DNA of 6,476 bases from the IMG/VR virus record IMGVR_UViG_2663763280_000003, positions 1-6,476 of that record. One strand, 5' to 3'. Position 1 is the stretch's first letter; each line of letters opens with the position of its first letter. The notes under the pieces were generated by a model that searched no databases, was not told where the DNA came from, and saw nothing but the letters and a program-made list of their open reading frames with translations. Below are positions 1 through 6,476 of the stretch, in pieces. A program made the position numbers and the translations under genes. This stretch comes from a virus (taxonomy: Duplodnaviria > Heunggongvirae > Uroviricota > Caudoviricetes).

Positions 1-138
1 CATTACGGTATTCCGGCCACGCTGCGGGGCATGGTGAACAACGACTTGAAGGCCACGGCTGACGCCGTGTTGTCCCTGGTGAAAGACGGCGCAACTGATG
101 GTGTTCAGATCGACCCGACGCTGTTTTCATCATCTTGA
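1..138 (+). CDS. 3' end of an ORF entering from upstream of the window (about 45 codons, ...DPTLFSSS*); product unknown
   Basis: Frame 1 is open from the window edge to TGA at 136-138; co-directional with the downstream prophage genes. No recognisable motif. Confidence 0.3.
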
Positions 139-182
139 TGAGATGATGCCTGTTATTTATACCCCAACCGTCGGCGCAGCCT

Positions 183-425
183 GTGAGCGTTTTTCTGAGA
201 TCTACCGCCGTTCACGCGGCGTGTTTATCTCTTACCAGAACCGGCACAATACAAGTTAACCGCTGGTTCAAAGATCACTACGGAGTGCCCGTCAGAGTCA
301 TTCGTTGGGAGCCGGAAACACAACGAGTTATCTACCTCCGCGAAGGCTATGAGCATGAGTGCTTCAGCCCGCTCGAACAGTTTCGTCGTAAATTCAGGGA
401 AATAGAGGTCGGTCATGAGCACTAA
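183..425 (+). CDS. hypothetical small protein (80 codons, GTG start, no in-frame ATG)
   Basis: ORF from the six-frame track. Its TAA stop (423-425) overlaps the ATG (415) of the downstream replication gene, a typical phage operon arrangement. No clear Shine-Dalgarno upstream of the GTG; a competing antisense ORF exists at 225-422. Confidence 0.35.
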
Positions 426-1356
426 ATTAACCGGCTATGTATGGGATGGTTGCGCTGCATCAGGCATGAAATTATCCAGCGTGGCAATTATGGCCCGCCT
501 GGCTGATTTCAGTAATGACGAAGGTGTGTGCTGGCCATCAATTGAAACTATTGCCCGTCAGATTGGCGCGGGGATGAGTACCGTCAGGACGGCTATCGCA
601 CGGCTGGAAGCAGAAGGCTGGTTAACGCGTAAGGCGCGTCGCCAGGGTAACCGCAATGCGTCGAATGTTTATCAGCTTAACGTTGCGAAGCTTCAGGCAG
701 CGGCATTTTCTCAACTGCCAGATTCTGACCCGTCAAAATCTGACGCATCAAAATCTGACCCGTCAAAATTTGATGCGTCGAAATCTGGCAAAAAAGCGGG
801 TTTTCACCCGTCAGAATCTGGCGGGGATCCGTCAGTAAAATCAAAACATGATCCGTCAGATAAAAAACCTTCTCGTCCGGACGCTTCGCAACCGGACACG
901 CAGACGGATGAACAGGATTTTTTAACTCGCCATCCTGATGCGGTTGTATTCAGCCCTAAAAAGCGCCAGTGGGGAACGCAGGATGATTTGACCTGCGCAC
1001 AGTGGCTCTGGAAAAAAATCATCGCCCTGTACGAGCAAGCCGCCGAATGTGACGGCGAGGTGGTTCGTCCCAAAGAACCGAACTGGACAGCCTGGGCAAA
1101 CGAAATTCGCCTGATGTGTGTGCAGGATGGTCGTACTCACAAACAAATCTGCGAGATGTACAGCCGCGTCAGCCGCGATCCGTTCTGGTGCCGTAACGTG
1201 CTCAGCCCGTCGAAGTTGCGGGAAAAATGGGATGAGCTTTCCCTGCGCTTATCACCGTCCGTCAGCACGTACACCGAAAAACGCGAAGACCCGTACTTCA
1301 AATCCAGTTACGACAACGTGGACTACAGCCAGATCCCGGCAGGATTCAGGGGGTGA
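415..1356 (+). CDS. phage replication initiation protein: N-terminal helix-turn-helix DNA-binding domain, repetitive SDPSK linker, DnaT-like C-terminal domain
   Basis: 313-aa ORF with GAGG Shine-Dalgarno before the ATG. The N-terminal segment (…IETIARQIGAGMSTVRTAIARLEAEGWL…) is HTH-like. The C-terminus …YSQIPAGFRG closely resembles the C-terminus of E. coli primosomal protein DnaT (…SQIPPGFRG), recalled from memory. The central linker is encoded by tandem 15-bp repeats. Confidence 0.85.
   Translation: MSTKLTGYVWDGCAASGMKLSSVAIMARLADFSNDEGVCWPSIETIARQIGAGMSTVRTAIARLEAEGWLTRKARRQGNRNASNVYQLNVAKLQAAAFSQLPDSDPSKSDASKSDPSKFDASKSGKKAGFHPSESGGDPSVKSKHDPSDKKPSRPDASQPDTQTDEQDFLTRHPDAVVFSPKKRQWGTQDDLTCAQWLWKKIIALYEQAAECDGEVVRPKEPNWTAWANEIRLMCVQDGRTHKQICEMYSRVSRDPFWCRNVLSPSKLREKWDELSLRLSPSVSTYTEKREDPYFKSSYDNVDYSQIPAGFRG
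724..869. repeat. iteron-like array inside the replication gene (candidate phage origin): four tandem 15-bp units plus three dispersed CCGTCAG core copies, followed by an A-rich tract
   Basis: Tandem units tctgacccgtcaaaa (724-738), tctgacgcatcaaaa (739-753), tctgacccgtcaaaa (754-768), tttgatgcgtcgaaa (769-783). Further core copies ccgtcagaatctg (808-820), ccgtcagtaaaatc (829-842) and ccgtcagataaaaaacc (853-869). Analogous to lambda ori lying within gene O. Confidence 0.55.
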
Positions 1357-1358
1357 TC

Positions 1359-1655
1359 ATGAGTCTTTTGAATGAAGTTCAGAAATTCATTGAAGCCCAT
1401 CCGGGATGTACTTCCGGAGACATTGCGGATGCTTTTGCAGGTTACTCACGGCAGCGCGTTCTGCAGTCAGCAAGCAAGTTACGTCAGAGTGGGCGTGTGG
1501 CTCACCGTTGTGAAGGAGATACACGCAGACATTTCCCGCGCCTGACTGAGAGAGCGCAGGAACCGGAACCACAACCAGTTCGAGAAACCAGACCTGTGCG
1601 CAATTTCTATGTCGGCACTAACGATCCACGGGTGATTTTGTGCCTGACCCGCTAG
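1359..1655 (+). CDS. hypothetical small phage protein, possibly a winged-helix DNA-binding protein
   Basis: ATG at 1359 preceded by a GGGGG Shine-Dalgarno-like run (1349-1353); an alternative GTG at 1353 overlaps the upstream TGA (1354-1356). Ends at TAG 1653-1655. The N-terminal segment (…CTSGDIADAFAGYSRQRVLQSASKLRQSGRV…) is HTH-like. Confidence 0.55.
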   Translation: MSLLNEVQKFIEAHPGCTSGDIADAFAGYSRQRVLQSASKLRQSGRVAHRCEGDTRRHFPRLTERAQEPEPQPVRETRPVRNFYVGTNDPRVILCLTR

Positions 1656-1706
1656 GCTGAAGAACTGGAGTCCAGGGGCTTATACCGTCGTGCTGCAACC
1701 GTGTGG

Positions 1707-1847
1707 ATGGCGGTATTCCGTGAAAGCCACTCCCAGCCAGAACGAAACAATTTTCTGGCGCGTCGTGAGCAGTGCTTACAGAAAAGCAGCAAGCGCGCTG
1801 CATCGGGTGAAGAGTGGTATCTGTCAGGGAATTACGTGGGGGCTTAA
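1707..1847 (+). CDS. possible small ORF (46 codons from ATG 1707), or the downstream part of the preceding gene interrupted by an in-frame TAG
   Basis: The frame stays open from directly after TAG 1653-1655 through to TAA 1845-1847, which overlaps the Dam ATG (1847) as TAATG. No obvious Shine-Dalgarno before ATG 1707. Too short to be listed in the ORF track. Confidence 0.25.
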   Translation: MAVFRESHSQPERNNFLARREQCLQKSSKRAASGEEWYLSGNYVGA

Positions 1848-2500
1848 TGAGTAATAAATATTGTCAGGCACTGGTGGAACTGCGGAACAAACCAGCCCAT
1901 GAACTGAAGGAAGTGGGCGATCAGTGGCGCACGCCGGACAACATTTTCTGGGGAATTAACACCCTGTTTGGCCCGTTTGTTCTGGATCTGTTCACTGACG
2001 GTGATAACGCCAAATGTGCCGCGTATTACACGGCGGAAGACAACGCGCTGGCGCATGACTGGTCAGAACGCCTTGCGGAGCTTAAAGGTGCTGCCTTTGG
2101 TAATCCCCCATACAGCCGCGCCAGTCAGCATGAGGGGCAATACATCACCGGCATGCGTTACATCATGAAACATGCCAGTGCCATGCGTGATAAAGGCGGG
2201 CGCTATGTTTTCCTGATCAAAGCTGCCACCAGTGAAGTGTGGTGGCCGGAAGATGCGGACCATATTGCTTTTATTCGCGGGCGTATTGGTTTTGAACTGC
2301 CTGCCTGGTTTATCCCGAAGGACGAGAAGCAGGTGCCGACAGGTGCTTTCTTCGCTGGTGCTATTGCTGTTTTCGACAAGACCTGGAAGGGACCGGCAAT
2401 CAGCTACATCGGGCGCGATGAACTTGAGGCATGTGGTGAGGCGTTTCTGGTGCAGGTTCGCCAGCAGGCGGAAAAACTGGTCAGGGAGATGGCGGCATGA
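1847..2500 (+). CDS. phage-type DNA N6-adenine methyltransferase (Dam family), orphan
   Basis: NPPY catalytic motif in …AAFGNPPYSRA…; the N-terminal …WRTPDNIF… is typical of phage Dam methylases. ATG 1847 is preceded by a GGGGG run; an upstream in-frame GTG at 1814 is an alternative start. No restriction endonuclease gene nearby. Confidence 0.85.
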   Translation: MSNKYCQALVELRNKPAHELKEVGDQWRTPDNIFWGINTLFGPFVLDLFTDGDNAKCAAYYTAEDNALAHDWSERLAELKGAAFGNPPYSRASQHEGQYITGMRYIMKHASAMRDKGGRYVFLIKAATSEVWWPEDADHIAFIRGRIGFELPAWFIPKDEKQVPTGAFFAGAIAVFDKTWKGPAISYIGRDELEACGEAFLVQVRQQAEKLVREMAA

Positions 2501-2823
2501 CGACGTTAACTCAATGCCAGCAGCAGGTGCTGGATATGCTGATTTCTTACCAGCAAGAACGTGGCTTCCCGCCAACTAATCAGGAGGTGGCAACCATGCT
2601 GGGATACCGTTCAGTGAATGCAGCGGTAGAGCATCTTCGCGCACTGGAGAAAAAAGGCGTCATCACGATAAAGCGTGGCGTGGCCCGGGGGATAACGCTT
2701 CATACCGCGGTGAAGGACGACGACAGCGAGGCGGTCGGGATTATCCGCGCACTGCTTGCCGGTGAGGAAAACGGCAGGCTGCGTGCAGCCCACTGGTTAC
2801 ATGAGAGGGGGCTGAAAGTATGA
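2497..2823 (+). CDS. LexA N-terminal DNA-binding-domain-like protein (108 aa) lacking the S24 peptidase domain
   Basis: MTTLTQCQQQVLDMLISYQQERGFPPTNQEVATMLGYRSVNAAVEHLRALEKKGVITIKRGVARGITL aligns residue-by-residue with E. coli LexA 1-70 (MKALTARQQEVFDLI…[36 protein letters not shown]…SRGIRL), recalled from memory. The start ATGA overlaps the Dam stop and the stop overlaps the rusA ATG. Confidence 0.75.
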   Translation: MTTLTQCQQQVLDMLISYQQERGFPPTNQEVATMLGYRSVNAAVEHLRALEKKGVITIKRGVARGITLHTAVKDDDSEAVGIIRALLAGEENGRLRAAHWLHERGLKV

Positions 2824-3209
2824 AGCTGATCCTGCCGTTTCCCCCCAGCGTGAACACGTACTGGCGACACCCCAACAAAGGGGCTTTTGCAGGTAAGAGC
2901 CTGATAAGCGCGGCGGGGCGTAAATTCCAGGGCGCGGCGTGTGCCGCCATCATTGAGCAGTTACGCCGTCTGCCGAAACCAACGTCGGCACCAGCTTCAG
3001 TGGAGATCGTGTTGTTTCCTCCGGATAACCGGATCCGCGATCTGGACAACTATAACAAGGCGCTGTTTGACGCCCTGACCCACGCGGGTGTGTGGGAAGA
3101 CGACAGTCAGGTGAAAAGAATGCTGGTGGAGTGGGGACCGGTTATCCCGGAAGGGAAGGTCGAGATCACTATCAGTAAGTACGAGAAACCGGCGGGTGCA
3201 GCCGCCTGA
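2820..3209 (+). CDS. rusA: RusA-family Holliday junction resolvase (crossover junction endodeoxyribonuclease)
   Basis: LPFPPSVNTYWRH and DLDNYNKALFDALTHAGVWEDDSQV correspond to the RusA motifs LPWPPSNNRYYRH and [31 protein letters not shown] Shine-Dalgarno upstream; 129 aa. Confidence 0.9.
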   Translation: MKLILPFPPSVNTYWRHPNKGAFAGKSLISAAGRKFQGAACAAIIEQLRRLPKPTSAPASVEIVLFPPDNRIRDLDNYNKALFDALTHAGVWEDDSQVKRMLVEWGPVIPEGKVEITISKYEKPAGAAA

Positions 3210-3228
3210 TTAAGAGGAGAAACGAAGT

Positions 3229-4026
3229 ATGAATAATCTGATGGTCATTGATGGTATTGAAGTTCGTCGTGATGCTTATGGTCGTTACAGCCTGAACGAT
3301 CTGCACAGGGCTGCCGGTTCTCTGGATAAGCATAAGCCTGCATTCTGGCTCCGCAATGAGCAAACTGAACGTTTAATAAGCGAGTTGCAGATTTGCAACT
3401 CGGTCAATATAGAGCCAGTTAACGTTATTCGTGGCGGAAATAACCAGGGGACGTATGTCTGCAAAGAACTGGTGTATGCCTATGCAATGTGGATCAGCCC
3501 GTCATTCCATCTGAAGGTGATCCGTACTTTCGACATGGTAACCAGCGCACCTGAAAAATTATCCGGACAGGCTGCTGACAAGATGCAGGCTGGCGTGATT
3601 CTGCTGGACTTTATGCGCCGGGAGTTAAATCTGTCTAACTTTTCAGTGCTTGGAGCCTGTCAGAAACTTCAGGAGGCTGTTGGCTTACCGAATCTGGCAC
3701 CGCGCTATGCCATTGATGCTCCTGCTGACGCGCCTGATGGCTCAAGCCGCCCCACGCTGTCACTGAGTGCATTGCTGAAGCAGTATGGTATCCGCCTGAC
3801 AGCTAATCAGGCATATCACCAGATGGTGAAGCTGGGGATCGTCGAGCAGCGCGAACGATACAGCCGTACCGCGATTAACAACATCAAAAAATTCTGGTCG
3901 CTGACGGCGAAAGGCTGCATGTTCGGCAAGAACATTACCAGTCCTGCAAATCCGCGCGAGACGCAGCCGCATTTCTTCGAATCCCGATTCCCTGAGCTGT
4001 TAAAGCTGCTCGATACCGTTCATTGA
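3229..4026 (+). CDS. KilA-N domain protein (phage antirepressor-like; C-terminal half uncharacterised)
   Basis: Strong Shine-Dalgarno (AAGAGGAGA) before the ATG. The N-terminal ~110 aa (…YSLNDLHRAAG…PAFWLRNEQTERLISEL…GTYVCKELVYAYAMWISPSFHLKVIRTFD) matches the KilA-N/APSES-type fold pattern. Confidence 0.8.
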   Translation: MNNLMVIDGIEVRRDAYGRYSLNDLHRAAGSLDKHKPAFWLRNEQTERLISELQICNSVNIEPVNVIRGGNNQGTYVCKELVYAYAMWISPSFHLKVIRTFDMVTSAPEKLSGQAADKMQAGVILLDFMRRELNLSNFSVLGACQKLQEAVGLPNLAPRYAIDAPADAPDGSSRPTLSLSALLKQYGIRLTANQAYHQMVKLGIVEQRERYSRTAINNIKKFWSLTAKGCMFGKNITSPANPRETQPHFFESRFPELLKLLDTVH

Positions 4027-4027
4027 G

Positions 4028-4285
4028 GTGACCGTGAGAGCACTACTGACCCCTGAAATTGCCCCGCGTATGGGGATCGTATTGTTCAGACCAGGTTCAG
4101 AGCTGATGCCCCTGTTTATGCAGGGGCGTGTACTGCTGGAGCCTGAGCCGGAACGTTATTCATCTTTCGCCAGTGGTGCCGTTCCCGCGGCATCACAACC
4201 GCTGGCGGATGATCCTGCTGTTCGGGCCGTGTTCCGCAATGAGGCAGTGATCCGTCGTGCTGGTGGCGTGGAATGTCTTGAAAGC
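4028..4285 (+). CDS. hypothetical protein, 5' portion only; reading frame runs into the N-containing breakpoint
   Basis: GTG starts at 4028/4034 immediately after the KilA-N stop, after a GAGGTGA motif. The frame is open to the N run; no recognisable motif. Confidence 0.35.
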
Positions 4286-4295
4286 NNNNTACGNN
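4286..4295. other. ambiguous bases (nnnntacgnn) coinciding with a sequence breakpoint
   Basis: N characters are directly visible. Sequence to the left is the phage ORF; sequence to the right is the gltX 5' end on the opposite strand. Confidence 0.9.
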
Positions 4296-4353
4296 CGCCG
4301 CCAACGTGCAGATAGCCTGTTGGGCTTGGCGCGAAGCGAGTTTTGATTTTCAT
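4286..4353 (-). pseudogene. gltX: 5' fragment of glutamyl-tRNA synthetase gene (first ~20 codons only; truncated at the breakpoint)
   Basis: The minus strand from the ATG (complement of 4351-4353) encodes MKIKTRFAPSPTGYLHVGG, the GltX N-terminus including the class I HIGH-type motif region. Translation beyond the Ns no longer resembles GltX. Confidence 0.8.
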
Positions 4354-4566
4354 GAAATGGCCTTACGTTTAGAAAGATGCCGACAACCGGCAAATCCTGG
4401 AAAAATTGAGTGGGCGATATTCTATCACTCCCGCCTGATTCCTCAATGTAGTTCGGGTTTCTACCTTACGCATTATTGTTTTCGTTGACAAATTGCGCAA
4501 CACGGTCTGTTTTGCGATCATCTTGCTTAAATTTACGACGAACGAACAATTTCTTTAGAAAATGCG

Positions 4567-4594
4567 TTGACTCATTTTGAACTCTCCCTATAAT
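4567..4594 (+). promoter_or_regulatory. sigma70 promoter of the tRNA operon (-35 TTGACT 4567-4572, 16-bp spacer, -10 TATAAT 4589-4594), with an AT-rich upstream region
   Basis: Near-consensus hexamers about 18 bp upstream of the first tRNA. The AT-rich upstream tract (4500-4565) is typical of stable-RNA promoter UP/Fis regions. Confidence 0.6.
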
Positions 4595-4611
4595 GCGACT
4601 CCACACAGCGG

Positions 4612-4687
4612 GGGTGATTAGCTCAGCTGGGAGAGCACCTCCCTTACAAGGAGGGGGTCGGCGGTTCGATCCCGTCATCACCCACCA
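4612..4687 (+). tRNA. valU: tRNA-Val (anticodon UAC)
   Basis: 76-nt sequence GGGTGATTAGCTCAGCTGGGAGAGCACCTCCCTTACAAGGAGGGGGTCGGCGGTTCGATCCCGTCATCACCCACCA with cloverleaf, TAC anticodon in the CTTACAA loop and encoded CCA. Confidence 0.95.
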
Positions 4688-4731
4688 ACTACTTTATGTA
4701 GTCTCCGCCGTGTAGCAAGAAATTGAGAAGT

Positions 4732-4807
4732 GGGTGATTAGCTCAGCTGGGAGAGCACCTCCCTTACAAGGAGGGGGTCGGCGGTTCGATCCCGTCATCA
4801 CCCACCA
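4732..4807 (+). tRNA. valX: tRNA-Val (anticodon UAC), second identical copy
   Basis: Identical 76-nt sequence to 4612-4687. Confidence 0.95.
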
Positions 4808-4853
4808 CTTTCTCGCCAGCTAAATTTCTTGTAAAAATGTGAAGTACCGAAGT

Positions 4854-4929
4854 GGGTGATTAGCTCAGCTGGGAGAGCACCTCCCTTACAAGGAGGGGGT
4901 CGGCGGTTCGATCCCGTCATCACCCACCA
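4854..4929 (+). tRNA. valY: tRNA-Val (anticodon UAC), third identical copy
   Basis: Identical 76-nt sequence to 4612-4687. Confidence 0.95.
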
Positions 4930-4933
4930 CTTC

Positions 4934-5009
4934 GGGTCGTTAGCTCAGTTGGTAGAGCAGTTGACTTTTAATCAATTGGTCGCAGGTTCGAATCCTGCAC
5001 GACCCACCA
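4934..5009 (+). tRNA. lysV: tRNA-Lys (anticodon UUU)
   Basis: GGGTCGTTAGCTCAGTTGGTAGAGCAGTTGACTTTTAATCAATTGGTCGCAGGTTCGAATCCTGCACGACCCACCA; anticodon loop CTTTTAA, encoded CCA; lies 4 nt after the third tRNA-Val. Confidence 0.95.
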
Positions 5010-5013
5010 ATGT

Positions 5014-5041
5014 AAAAAAGCGCCCTAAAGGCGCTTTTTTG
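5014..5041 (+). terminator. rho-independent terminator of the tRNA operon
   Basis: AAAAAAGCGCC-CTAAA-GGCGCTTTTTTG: GC stem, 5-nt loop, T-run. Confidence 0.8.
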
Positions 5042-5147
5042 CTATCTGCGATACTCAAAGATTCGAAGCTGCCGCAGGTTCGAGTTGAGCGCAGCGAAAC
5101 AACGGAGCCGCTCGCGGCGACGGCCCGAAGGGCGAGCGAAGCGAGTC

Positions 5148-5208
5148 ATCCTGCACGACCCACCAATGTAAAAAAGCGCCCTAAAGGCGCTTTTTTGCTA
5201 TCTGCGAT
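5148..5208. repeat. 61-bp direct repeat of 4992-5052 (tRNA-Lys 3' end plus terminator); second copy of a partial tRNA-Lys whose T-arm is interrupted by ~64 bp
   Basis: atcctgcacgacccaccaatgtaaaaaagcgccctaaaggcgcttttttgctatctgcgat occurs at both positions. Upstream of the second copy, cgcaggttcga (5073-5083) resembles the tRNA-Lys T-arm, followed by a GC-rich insert. Confidence 0.8.
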
Positions 5209-5314
5209 TTGCGAAATTGCCTGATGCGCTTCACTTAGCAGACGACTATTTCCGGCAATTCCTGTCTCCTCACCTACTGTGTCAATGCAGCCAACAGCTT
5301 AACCATCGCGGGCG

Positions 5315-5630
5315 TCACCTGCTGTGTTTCCAGTAGCGCCACTGCCAGCGGCCCGCGTCAGGGAGAAAATCATTCGCCAGCCCATCCATATGCAGCACGA
5401 AATCGCCCAGTTCATTTTCATGCGCCTGCAAAATGGCCTGCAAACGTCCGTCAACACCACGTTGGGTGACTTTTACACCCGCTAAAGGCCAGCGGATTTC
5501 ATCGATGTCCAGCGAATCGATGACTCTTCCCTTTGAACGAAGTAACGCGCCTGGCTCAAAGGTCAGCGTTGGGTCAGACAGACTTCCACTTAGCTGCGCA
5601 GGAACGACGAACGCAAACTGAATGGTCATT
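5315..5630 (-). CDS. unidentified coding fragment (about 105 codons, no recognisable N-terminus); possibly the 3' part of the convergent neighbour gene
   Basis: Long open frame on the minus strand. In E. coli K-12 the gene after lysV is xapR on the opposite strand, but I cannot confirm identity from sequence. A different minus frame ends …QQVTPAMVKLLAALTQ* at 5274, hinting at a frameshift or another junction. Confidence 0.3.
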
Positions 5631-5682
5631 ACGCCGTTTATTACGTGCTGTCGATGGAGAAGGGCACCAAGTGTTGGGTAAC

Positions 5683-5884
5683 GGTTCGCGTCCCGATGCC
5701 GTTGCTGCAACACAGCAGGGCGTTTTTAGTTTCCTCACCAAGCCTGTCGACAAAGACGCGCTATATCAGGCAATTGACGATGCGCTGGAGCAATCCGCGC
5801 CAGCCACCGATGAACGCTGGCGCGAGGCAATTGTCACCCGCAGCCCGCTGATGCTGCGTTTGCTGGAACAGGCGCGGCTGGTGC
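5683..5884 (+). pseudogene. glrR: internal fragment of the sigma54-dependent response regulator GlrR (YfhA/QseF)
   Basis: Encodes …PDAVAATQQGVFSFLTKPVDKDALYQAIDDALEQSAPATDERWREAIVTRSPLMLRLLEQARLV, matching the GlrR receiver/linker region as I recall it. Identity is lost abruptly at ~5884. Confidence 0.7.
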
Positions 5885-6064
5885 TTCCGCCAGGTCGATA
5901 CCGGTGTAATGACCATAACCGAATTTACCCATCCATTCGGAGAGGCGATCGATCCCCATATCGTAGGCCACCTGATAGAAGAAGGTATCCGCAGATTCTT
6001 CCAGCGATCTTGTGACATTCAGACGCCCGTGGCCCCATTTTTTCCAGTCACGATAACGTTTTTC
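5885..6064 (-). pseudogene. mrdA: internal fragment of penicillin-binding protein 2 (MrdA)
   Basis: The minus strand encodes …[60 protein letters not shown], matching PBP2. Abuts the glrR fragment on one side and the gad fragment on the other. Confidence 0.7.
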
Positions 6065-6065
6065 C

Positions 6066-6224
6066 AAAGTACAGAACGCCTCTTACCAGGTTGCCGCTTA
6101 TCTGGCGGATGAAATCGCCAAACTGGGGCCGTATGAGTTCATCTGTACGGGTCGCCCGGACGAAGGCATCCCGGCGGTTTGCTTCAAACTGAAAGATGGT
6201 GAAGATCCGGGATACACCCTGTAC
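6066..6224 (+). pseudogene. gadB: internal fragment of glutamate decarboxylase (gadA/gadB; the paralogues are indistinguishable here)
   Basis: Encodes [53 protein letters not shown], matching the Gad C-terminal region. Identity is lost at 6225. Confidence 0.7.
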
Positions 6225-6226
6225 TT

Positions 6227-6367
6227 GTTTATGACATGCCTGGCACGACGCGTGACAGTATCTACATTCCAATGGAACGCGATGGACGTGAGTATGTGCT
6301 CATTGATACCGCTGGCGTACGTAAACGCGGCAAAATCACCGATGCTGTAGAGAAATTCTCCGTAATC
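6227..6367 (+). pseudogene. der: internal fragment of the GTPase Der (EngA)
   Basis: Encodes [47 protein letters not shown], matching a Der GTPase domain. It is in a different frame from the preceding gad fragment. Confidence 0.7.
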
Positions 6368-6376
6368 AGGTGAATA

Positions 6377-6388
6377 GATCGGAAGAGA
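6377..6388 (+). other. AGATCGGAAGAG, identical to the first 12 nt of Illumina TruSeq adapters, at a fragment junction
   Basis: Exact 12-mer lying between the der and envZ fragments. Only 12 nt match, so a chance occurrence cannot be excluded, but the context supports read-derived chimerism. Confidence 0.35.
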
Positions 6389-6389
6389 A

Positions 6390-6476
6390 AGTTCATTTGC
6401 CCGTACGTTATTGCTCATCGTCACCTTGCTGTTCTCCAGCCTGGTGACAACTTATCTGGTGGTGCTGAACTTCGCG
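6390..6476 (+). pseudogene. envZ: 5'-proximal fragment of the osmosensor histidine kinase EnvZ (N-terminal transmembrane segment)
   Basis: Encodes SSFARTLLLIVTLLFSSLVTTYLVVLNFA, matching the EnvZ N-terminus (…SFARTLLLIVTLLFASLVTTYLVVLNFA…). No start codon or promoter context is present. Confidence 0.7.

Follow-up and report, generated by a model that had tools for sequence, protein, structure and literature searches.

Composition of the window

The window, by which we mean the whole stretch of 6,476 nucleotides analysed here, was compared by local blastn with fetched loci of E. coli K-12 MG1655, one F-type plasmid and natural prophage loci. It tiles without remainder into assigned pieces. Those that begin to the left of position 5331 are given below; nucleotide positions (nt) are those within the gene named.

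1–129, plus strand: internal fragment of trbC (F plasmid), approximately nt 340–468 of 639; 99.2% identical to trbC of plasmid pEC21Z014-112K
130–250, plus strand: internal fragment of maeA, nt 282–402 of 1698; 100% identical to K-12
251–4285, plus strand: lambdoid (SfII-like) prophage block, 4,035 bp; 99.975% identical to four natural prophage loci (L013, L014, L016 and L017)
4286–4295, no strand assigned: chimeric join, written NNNNTACGNN, defined by base-level comparison with both parent sequences
4290–5330, plus strand: native chromosomal block comprising the gltX–valU intergenic region, valU–valX–valY (three tRNA-Val genes), lysV (tRNA-Lys), an intergenic region and the 3′ end of xapR; 99.2% identical to K-12, ungapped

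The prophage block contains genes for an O-like replication protein, PerC/yfdN, Dam, a LexA-like protein, RusA and a KilA-N protein, together with the start of a DUF968 gene. In all collections searched (E. coli genomes, phages and plasmids) the prophage match stopped at precisely 251 and 4285, and the natural neighbour of the block is proA, not valU. A C-to-T change at position 1653 is the sole difference between the block and the four natural prophages. It converts a glutamine codon (CAG) to a TAG stop in a PerC/yfdN-family gene at 1353–1847, which is thereby split into open reading frames at 1353–1655 and 1690–1854; the change may be a genuine nonsense mutation or an error in the reads. Within the gene for a 313-amino acid helix–turn–helix replication protein, labelled 'replication protein O' in related phages, there is a 15/30-bp tandem repeat, TCTGACCCGTCAAAA, present in 4.3 copies at 724–787. 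This repeat may resemble the iterons of a λ-type origin, which is embedded in the O gene.

Four tRNA genes were detected in the chromosomal block with ARAGORN, and the 3′ end of xapR occupies 5274–5330 on the minus strand. A 61-bp direct repeat, consisting of the lysV 3′ end plus a terminator hairpin, is found at 4992–5052 and 5148–5208. This repeat is native, because the same duplication lies downstream of lysV in K-12 MG1655. The valU–valX–valY–lysV operon and the early region of an SfII-like lambdoid prophage are thus the genuine content of the window, and both are ordinary.

The left end of the window (1–250) is a mosaic like that at the right end described below: the trbC piece abuts the maeA piece, and the prophage block follows from position 251. 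The maeA piece shares a 1-bp overlap with its neighbour at both of its junctions. The joins between trbC, maeA and the prophage were found in no complete E. coli genome searched.

Gene fragments at the right end

To the right of xapR the window consists of the following pieces, across three of which runs a long open reading frame that ends in a fourth.

5331–5602, minus strand: internal fragment of ydbH, 272 bp, nt 1042–1313 of 2640, frame −2; 100% identical in many genomes, at one place in each
5603–5692, plus strand: internal fragment of hycE, 90 bp, nt 187–276 of 1710, frame +2; 100% identical in many genomes, 95.6% to K-12
5693–5883, plus strand: internal fragment of glrR, 191 bp, nt 269–459 of 1335, frame +1; 100% identical, at one place per genome
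5884–6065, minus strand: internal fragment of mrdA, 182 bp, nt 1089–1270 of 1902, frame −2; 100% identical allele in complete genomes
6066–6224, plus strand: internal fragment of gadA or gadB, 159 bp, nt 1021–1179 of 1401, frame +3; 100% identical to both K-12 copies
6225–6368, plus strand: internal fragment of der, 144 bp, nt 686–829 of 1473, frame +2; 100% identical allele, 97.2% to K-12
6369–6388, no strand assigned: non-genomic linker, 20 nt, GGTGAAT + AGATCGGAAGAG + A; different from the continuations of both der and envZ
6376–6387, plus strand: Illumina universal adapter 12-mer AGATCGGAAGAG in read-through orientation; 1 match against 0.01 expected
6389–6476, plus strand: fragment of envZ, 88 bp, nt 27–114 of 1353, frame +3, cut by the window end; 97.7% identical to K-12
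5533–6015, plus strand: spurious open reading frame of 160 amino acids across three junctions; only the middle part is real GlrR coding sequence

An initial annotation, made from the sequence alone, had described 5225–6476 as a mosaic of read-length fragments from five housekeeping genes, namely glrR, mrdA, gadA/B, der and envZ, in the orientations given above. All five fragments are present, with 97–100% identity to K-12 and E-values of 1e-37 to 1e-97, and at the nucleotide level each segment is assigned to the gene named, the K-12 loci being separate and far apart. The breakpoints proposed at 5884, 6065, 6225 and 6368–6390 are exact at the level of single bases. As described, the named pieces abut without intergenic DNA, in frames +1, −2, +3, +2 and +3 and in mixed orientations, and gene coordinates place the start and the stop of each gene outside its piece. 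The description has to be amended in several respects. The mosaic begins at 5331, 5225–5330 being the colinear native tRNA locus running into the 3′ end of xapR; two further pieces, ydbH at 5331–5602 and hycE at 5603–5692, had been missed; and the length of about 90–200 bp given for the pieces fits most of them but not the ydbH piece, at 272 bp.

The seven pieces spread over 5331–6476 are 95.6–100% identical to K-12 by local blastn, and neighbouring pieces map to non-adjacent K-12 loci. Taking the tRNA block first and then the pieces in order, their positions on the K-12 map are 2.52, 1.44, 2.85, 2.69, 0.67, 3.67 (or 1.57), 2.64 and 3.53 Mb, in agreement with the earlier statement that the five named genes are widely separated. 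The alternative position for the fifth piece arises from the two gad paralogues, which are indistinguishable over 6066–6224. Divergence from K-12 across the pieces ranges from 0 to 4.4% (gadA being 100% identical), so that the source must be a wild E. coli strain other than K-12, or two or more strains.

For each of the six pieces tested (ydbH, hycE, glrR, mrdA, gadA/B and der), complete genomes contain a 100% identical allele, located at one ordinary locus. Such exact matches to living alleles rule out an origin as decayed pseudogene remnants. mrdA and der are essential single-copy genes. In nearly all complete genomes each of their pieces matches one normal locus only, and there is therefore no hint of spare natural copies from which they might have come.

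The open reading frame at 5533–6015 begins in ydbH, read antisense, crosses hycE out of frame and glrR in frame, and ends in mrdA, again antisense. When it was searched against 5.8 billion proteins, homologues were found only for the GlrR-derived 43–48% of its length, and no match covered more than 48%. It had been regarded as an artefact spanning a junction; an artefact it is, with homologues for the GlrR part only, but three junctions are spanned rather than one. The region 5331–6476 is without function, and open reading frames across it are spurious.

The prophage–tRNA join

The join between the two large blocks was compared base by base with both parent sequences. The natural continuations at 4286–4295 are TGGTTACTTC for the prophage and GCAGTACGCG for the region upstream of valU in K-12. 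In the window the join reads NNNNTACGNN, with Ns where the prophage and valU-upstream sequences disagree and TAC where both agree. Position 4293 is an exception: here the parents differ, and the window has G, as in the valU sequence. The whole of 4286–4295 resembles the consensus that would be called if ten bases had wrongly been taken to overlap. As the prophage naturally adjoins proA and is not found near valU, the prophage–tRNA linkage in the window is false, and it should not be taken for an integration site.

An adapter remnant at the der/envZ join

The gap between der and envZ had been placed correctly at 6368–6390. What occupies it, at 6369–6388, turned out to be a non-genomic linker of 20 nt containing an Illumina adapter 12-mer. 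These are the sole unassigned nucleotides, and the 12-mer lying within them, AGATCGGAAGAG, ends 89 nt before the right end of the window. The chance of this 12-mer falling within the linker is about 1e-6, and no other adapter family screened matches there. A synthetic adapter is located exactly at one of the mosaic junctions. The same 12 bases have been published as a universal marker of adapter contamination in microbial genome databases; forward copies of the marker cluster near contig 3′ ends, and trimming is applied when the marker lies at most 300 nt from the end (PMC11536531).

The bases GGTGAAT (6369–6375), between the end of der and the adapter, differ from the sequence of either neighbour and might derive from an in-line tag or from a small part of some further fragment. 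A screen for Nextera, small-RNA, Ion, 454, SMRTbell, ONT, MGI and SOLiD adapters yielded just two short matches, a 10-mer and an 11-mer, at 5098 and 5534. Both are within genuine E. coli sequence and were taken as chance.

Overlaps and motifs at the junctions

Overlaps between adjoining pieces were counted at the eight scorable junctions, the count being corrected for two K-12 SNPs near junctions by use of the 100% identical alleles. The overlaps were 1, 1, 1, 0, 2, 0, 2 and 0 bp, with a mean of 0.875 bp. When blunt joins were simulated between randomly chosen E. coli positions, the mean was 0.68 bp, and the observed value does not differ from this (P = 0.31). Microhomology above chance was not seen at the breakpoints, within the limited power of eight junctions, and with overlaps of 0–2 bp no shared repeat of about k bases was found there. 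At the base level no duplication was seen at the mosaic junctions.

These values bear on two other ways in which the pieces might have been brought together. One is repeat-induced misassembly, in which a repeat of k bases or more, common to two loci, lets the assembler cross from one to the other. Misjoins at repeats are generally held to be the commonest assembly error, and the tRNA block is itself repetitive. The 0–2 bp shared at the eight scorable junctions are, however, what chance provides for blunt joins; no junction falls within the tRNA repeats, and the pieces joined come from unique genes, present once and at a single place in each genome. We therefore regard misassembly at repeats as extremely unlikely.

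The other is template switching during PCR or multiple-displacement amplification, followed by assembly of the resulting chimeras. Such chimeras are known to join distant loci and can reach high copy number, and they resemble the window in setting distant segments side by side, some of them inverted. Template switching normally leaves microhomology, whereas the overlaps here are no longer than chance, although with eight junctions this is a weak test. Seven successive switches within 1.2 kb would be extraordinary, far more than the joins seen in chimeras of that kind, and neither the truncated adapter stub nor the join with the N-consensus would be accounted for. An origin by template switching is thus very unlikely.

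Two further candidates were discarded. Inspection of the fragment ends by eye revealed no restriction site or common motif, which gives no support to a Hi-C or 3C-type origin. Length-sorted concatenation of separate contigs was also dropped: the short pieces alone are without order (shuffle, P = 0.24), and the apparent descending order of lengths arises only from the two long blocks in the middle.

Search for the joins in reference collections

To place the arrangement among natural sequences, the region 5225–6476 was compared with 5,426 complete E. coli genomes. Not one of them (0/5,426) has two of the pieces in one place. The median genome matches the region in 8 separate places, and the best single place in any of the genomes covers 22% of it, which is the ydbH piece alone. 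The piece-to-piece joins are likewise absent from 50,697 phage records and 72,556 plasmid records; when the whole window was searched against phages and plasmids, the prophage block was the only match. An exact 32-nt pattern over the xapR/ydbH junction gave 0 matches in viral_contigs, genome_contigs and metagenome_contigs, and an exact look-up of two chimeric open reading frames returned no record.

A rearrangement in vivo would require that gene fragments were captured downstream of lysV/xapR, either by a mobile element or when a break was repaired with filler DNA. Against this stand the absence of the joins from all of the genome, phage and plasmid records above and the exact identity of the tested fragments to alleles in complete genomes. 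No transposase, integrase, att or attC site, inverted repeat or target-site duplication was found in 5331–6476, and mobile-element machinery is excluded because the pieces tile this region and leave no room for it, the only unassigned bases being those of the 20-nt linker. One join, moreover, contains a synthetic adapter and another contains Ns, and both ends of the contig show the same mosaic pattern. We consider it exceedingly improbable that the arrangement arose in the cell. Hardly any more credence can be given to a variant in which the chain is real, formed from filler DNA during end-joining repair in vivo, and only the last, adapter-bearing join is artefactual.

Origin of the mosaic

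The region 5331–6476 is almost certainly a technical artefact rather than genomic structure, and 1–250 and 4286–4295 are of the same kind. This agrees with the initial annotation, which had preferred a technical chimera to a biological rearrangement, and it is borne out by the joins, found in 0/5,426 genomes, by the adapter at the der/envZ junction and by the Ns at 4286–4295.

A designed origin was also considered, in which a deliberate synthetic construct, such as a multi-target control concatemer, has been correctly assembled. The blunt, spacer-free joins are as one would expect of a designed concatemer. The orientations and frames are random, however, and the lengths irregular (88–272 bp); the genes represented are not known to form a marker set of the MLST type. 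An adapter stub and Ns would be foreign to any design, and the chain continues from the prophage and tRNA blocks, at whose other end stands a similar short chain. There is next to no likelihood that the region is a construct of this type.

As a technical artefact, the window is made up as follows. A false join unites two genuine E. coli blocks, the 4-kb prophage segment and the 1-kb valU–lysV–xapR segment, and at both outer ends pieces of unrelated E. coli genes, of read length (88–272 bp), have been added bluntly in chains. One piece has kept the first 12 adapter bases at its 3′ end, as happens when an insert is shorter than the read. The chains might have come about in software, if the steps of contig extension, merging or consensus calling linked reads or tiny contigs that do not truly overlap. 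Alternatively, they might have come about in the tube, if short inserts with adapter stubs were ligated bluntly into concatemers that were later assembled. We lean somewhat towards joining in software or at the level of reads, because the adapter breaks off at just the point at which a read would end, and because an N-consensus is present at another join. The concatenation of short reads put forward in the initial annotation is accordingly the most likely form of the artefact, though not a proven one. Standard de Bruijn assemblers do not usually produce a chain of at least seven blunt joins, and the exact process that generated it is therefore a guess.

The significance of the mosaic is limited to data hygiene. 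Before annotation, the left ~250 bp and the right ~1,150 bp need to be trimmed, and the contig trimmed or split at 4286–4295. If it is left untrimmed, spurious open reading frames such as 5533–6015, false gene fragments and a false linkage between prophage and tRNA genes enter the databases. Strings suitable for screening contig ends for the adapter are AGATCGGAAGAG and CTCTTCCGATCT.

Comparison with known artefacts

Chimeras produced by blunt ligation during library preparation are generally described as sharing several properties with the window: joins free of homology, unrelated loci, either orientation, and pieces of the size of short inserts. They usually unite two fragments per read. The chain of at least seven in the window, together with the N-consensus join and the 12-nt adapter, fits joining at the level of reads or in software better than ligation in the library.

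The nearest documented likeness is to the contamination of public assemblies by Illumina adapters (Moeller lab, BMC Genomics 2024, PMC11536531). The same forward 12-mer is found close to the 3′ end in those contigs and in the window, and in both the sequence around the marker is unreliable. In the published contigs the adapter usually runs on into more adapter-specific sequence, after which the contig stops. In the window, by contrast, it is cut after 12 nt and is followed by an unrelated envZ fragment, and six further false joins, free of adapter, lie upstream of it. Chimeric contig ends contaminated with adapter are a familiar technical error, of which the window is an unusually long example, with nine false joins in 6.5 kb.
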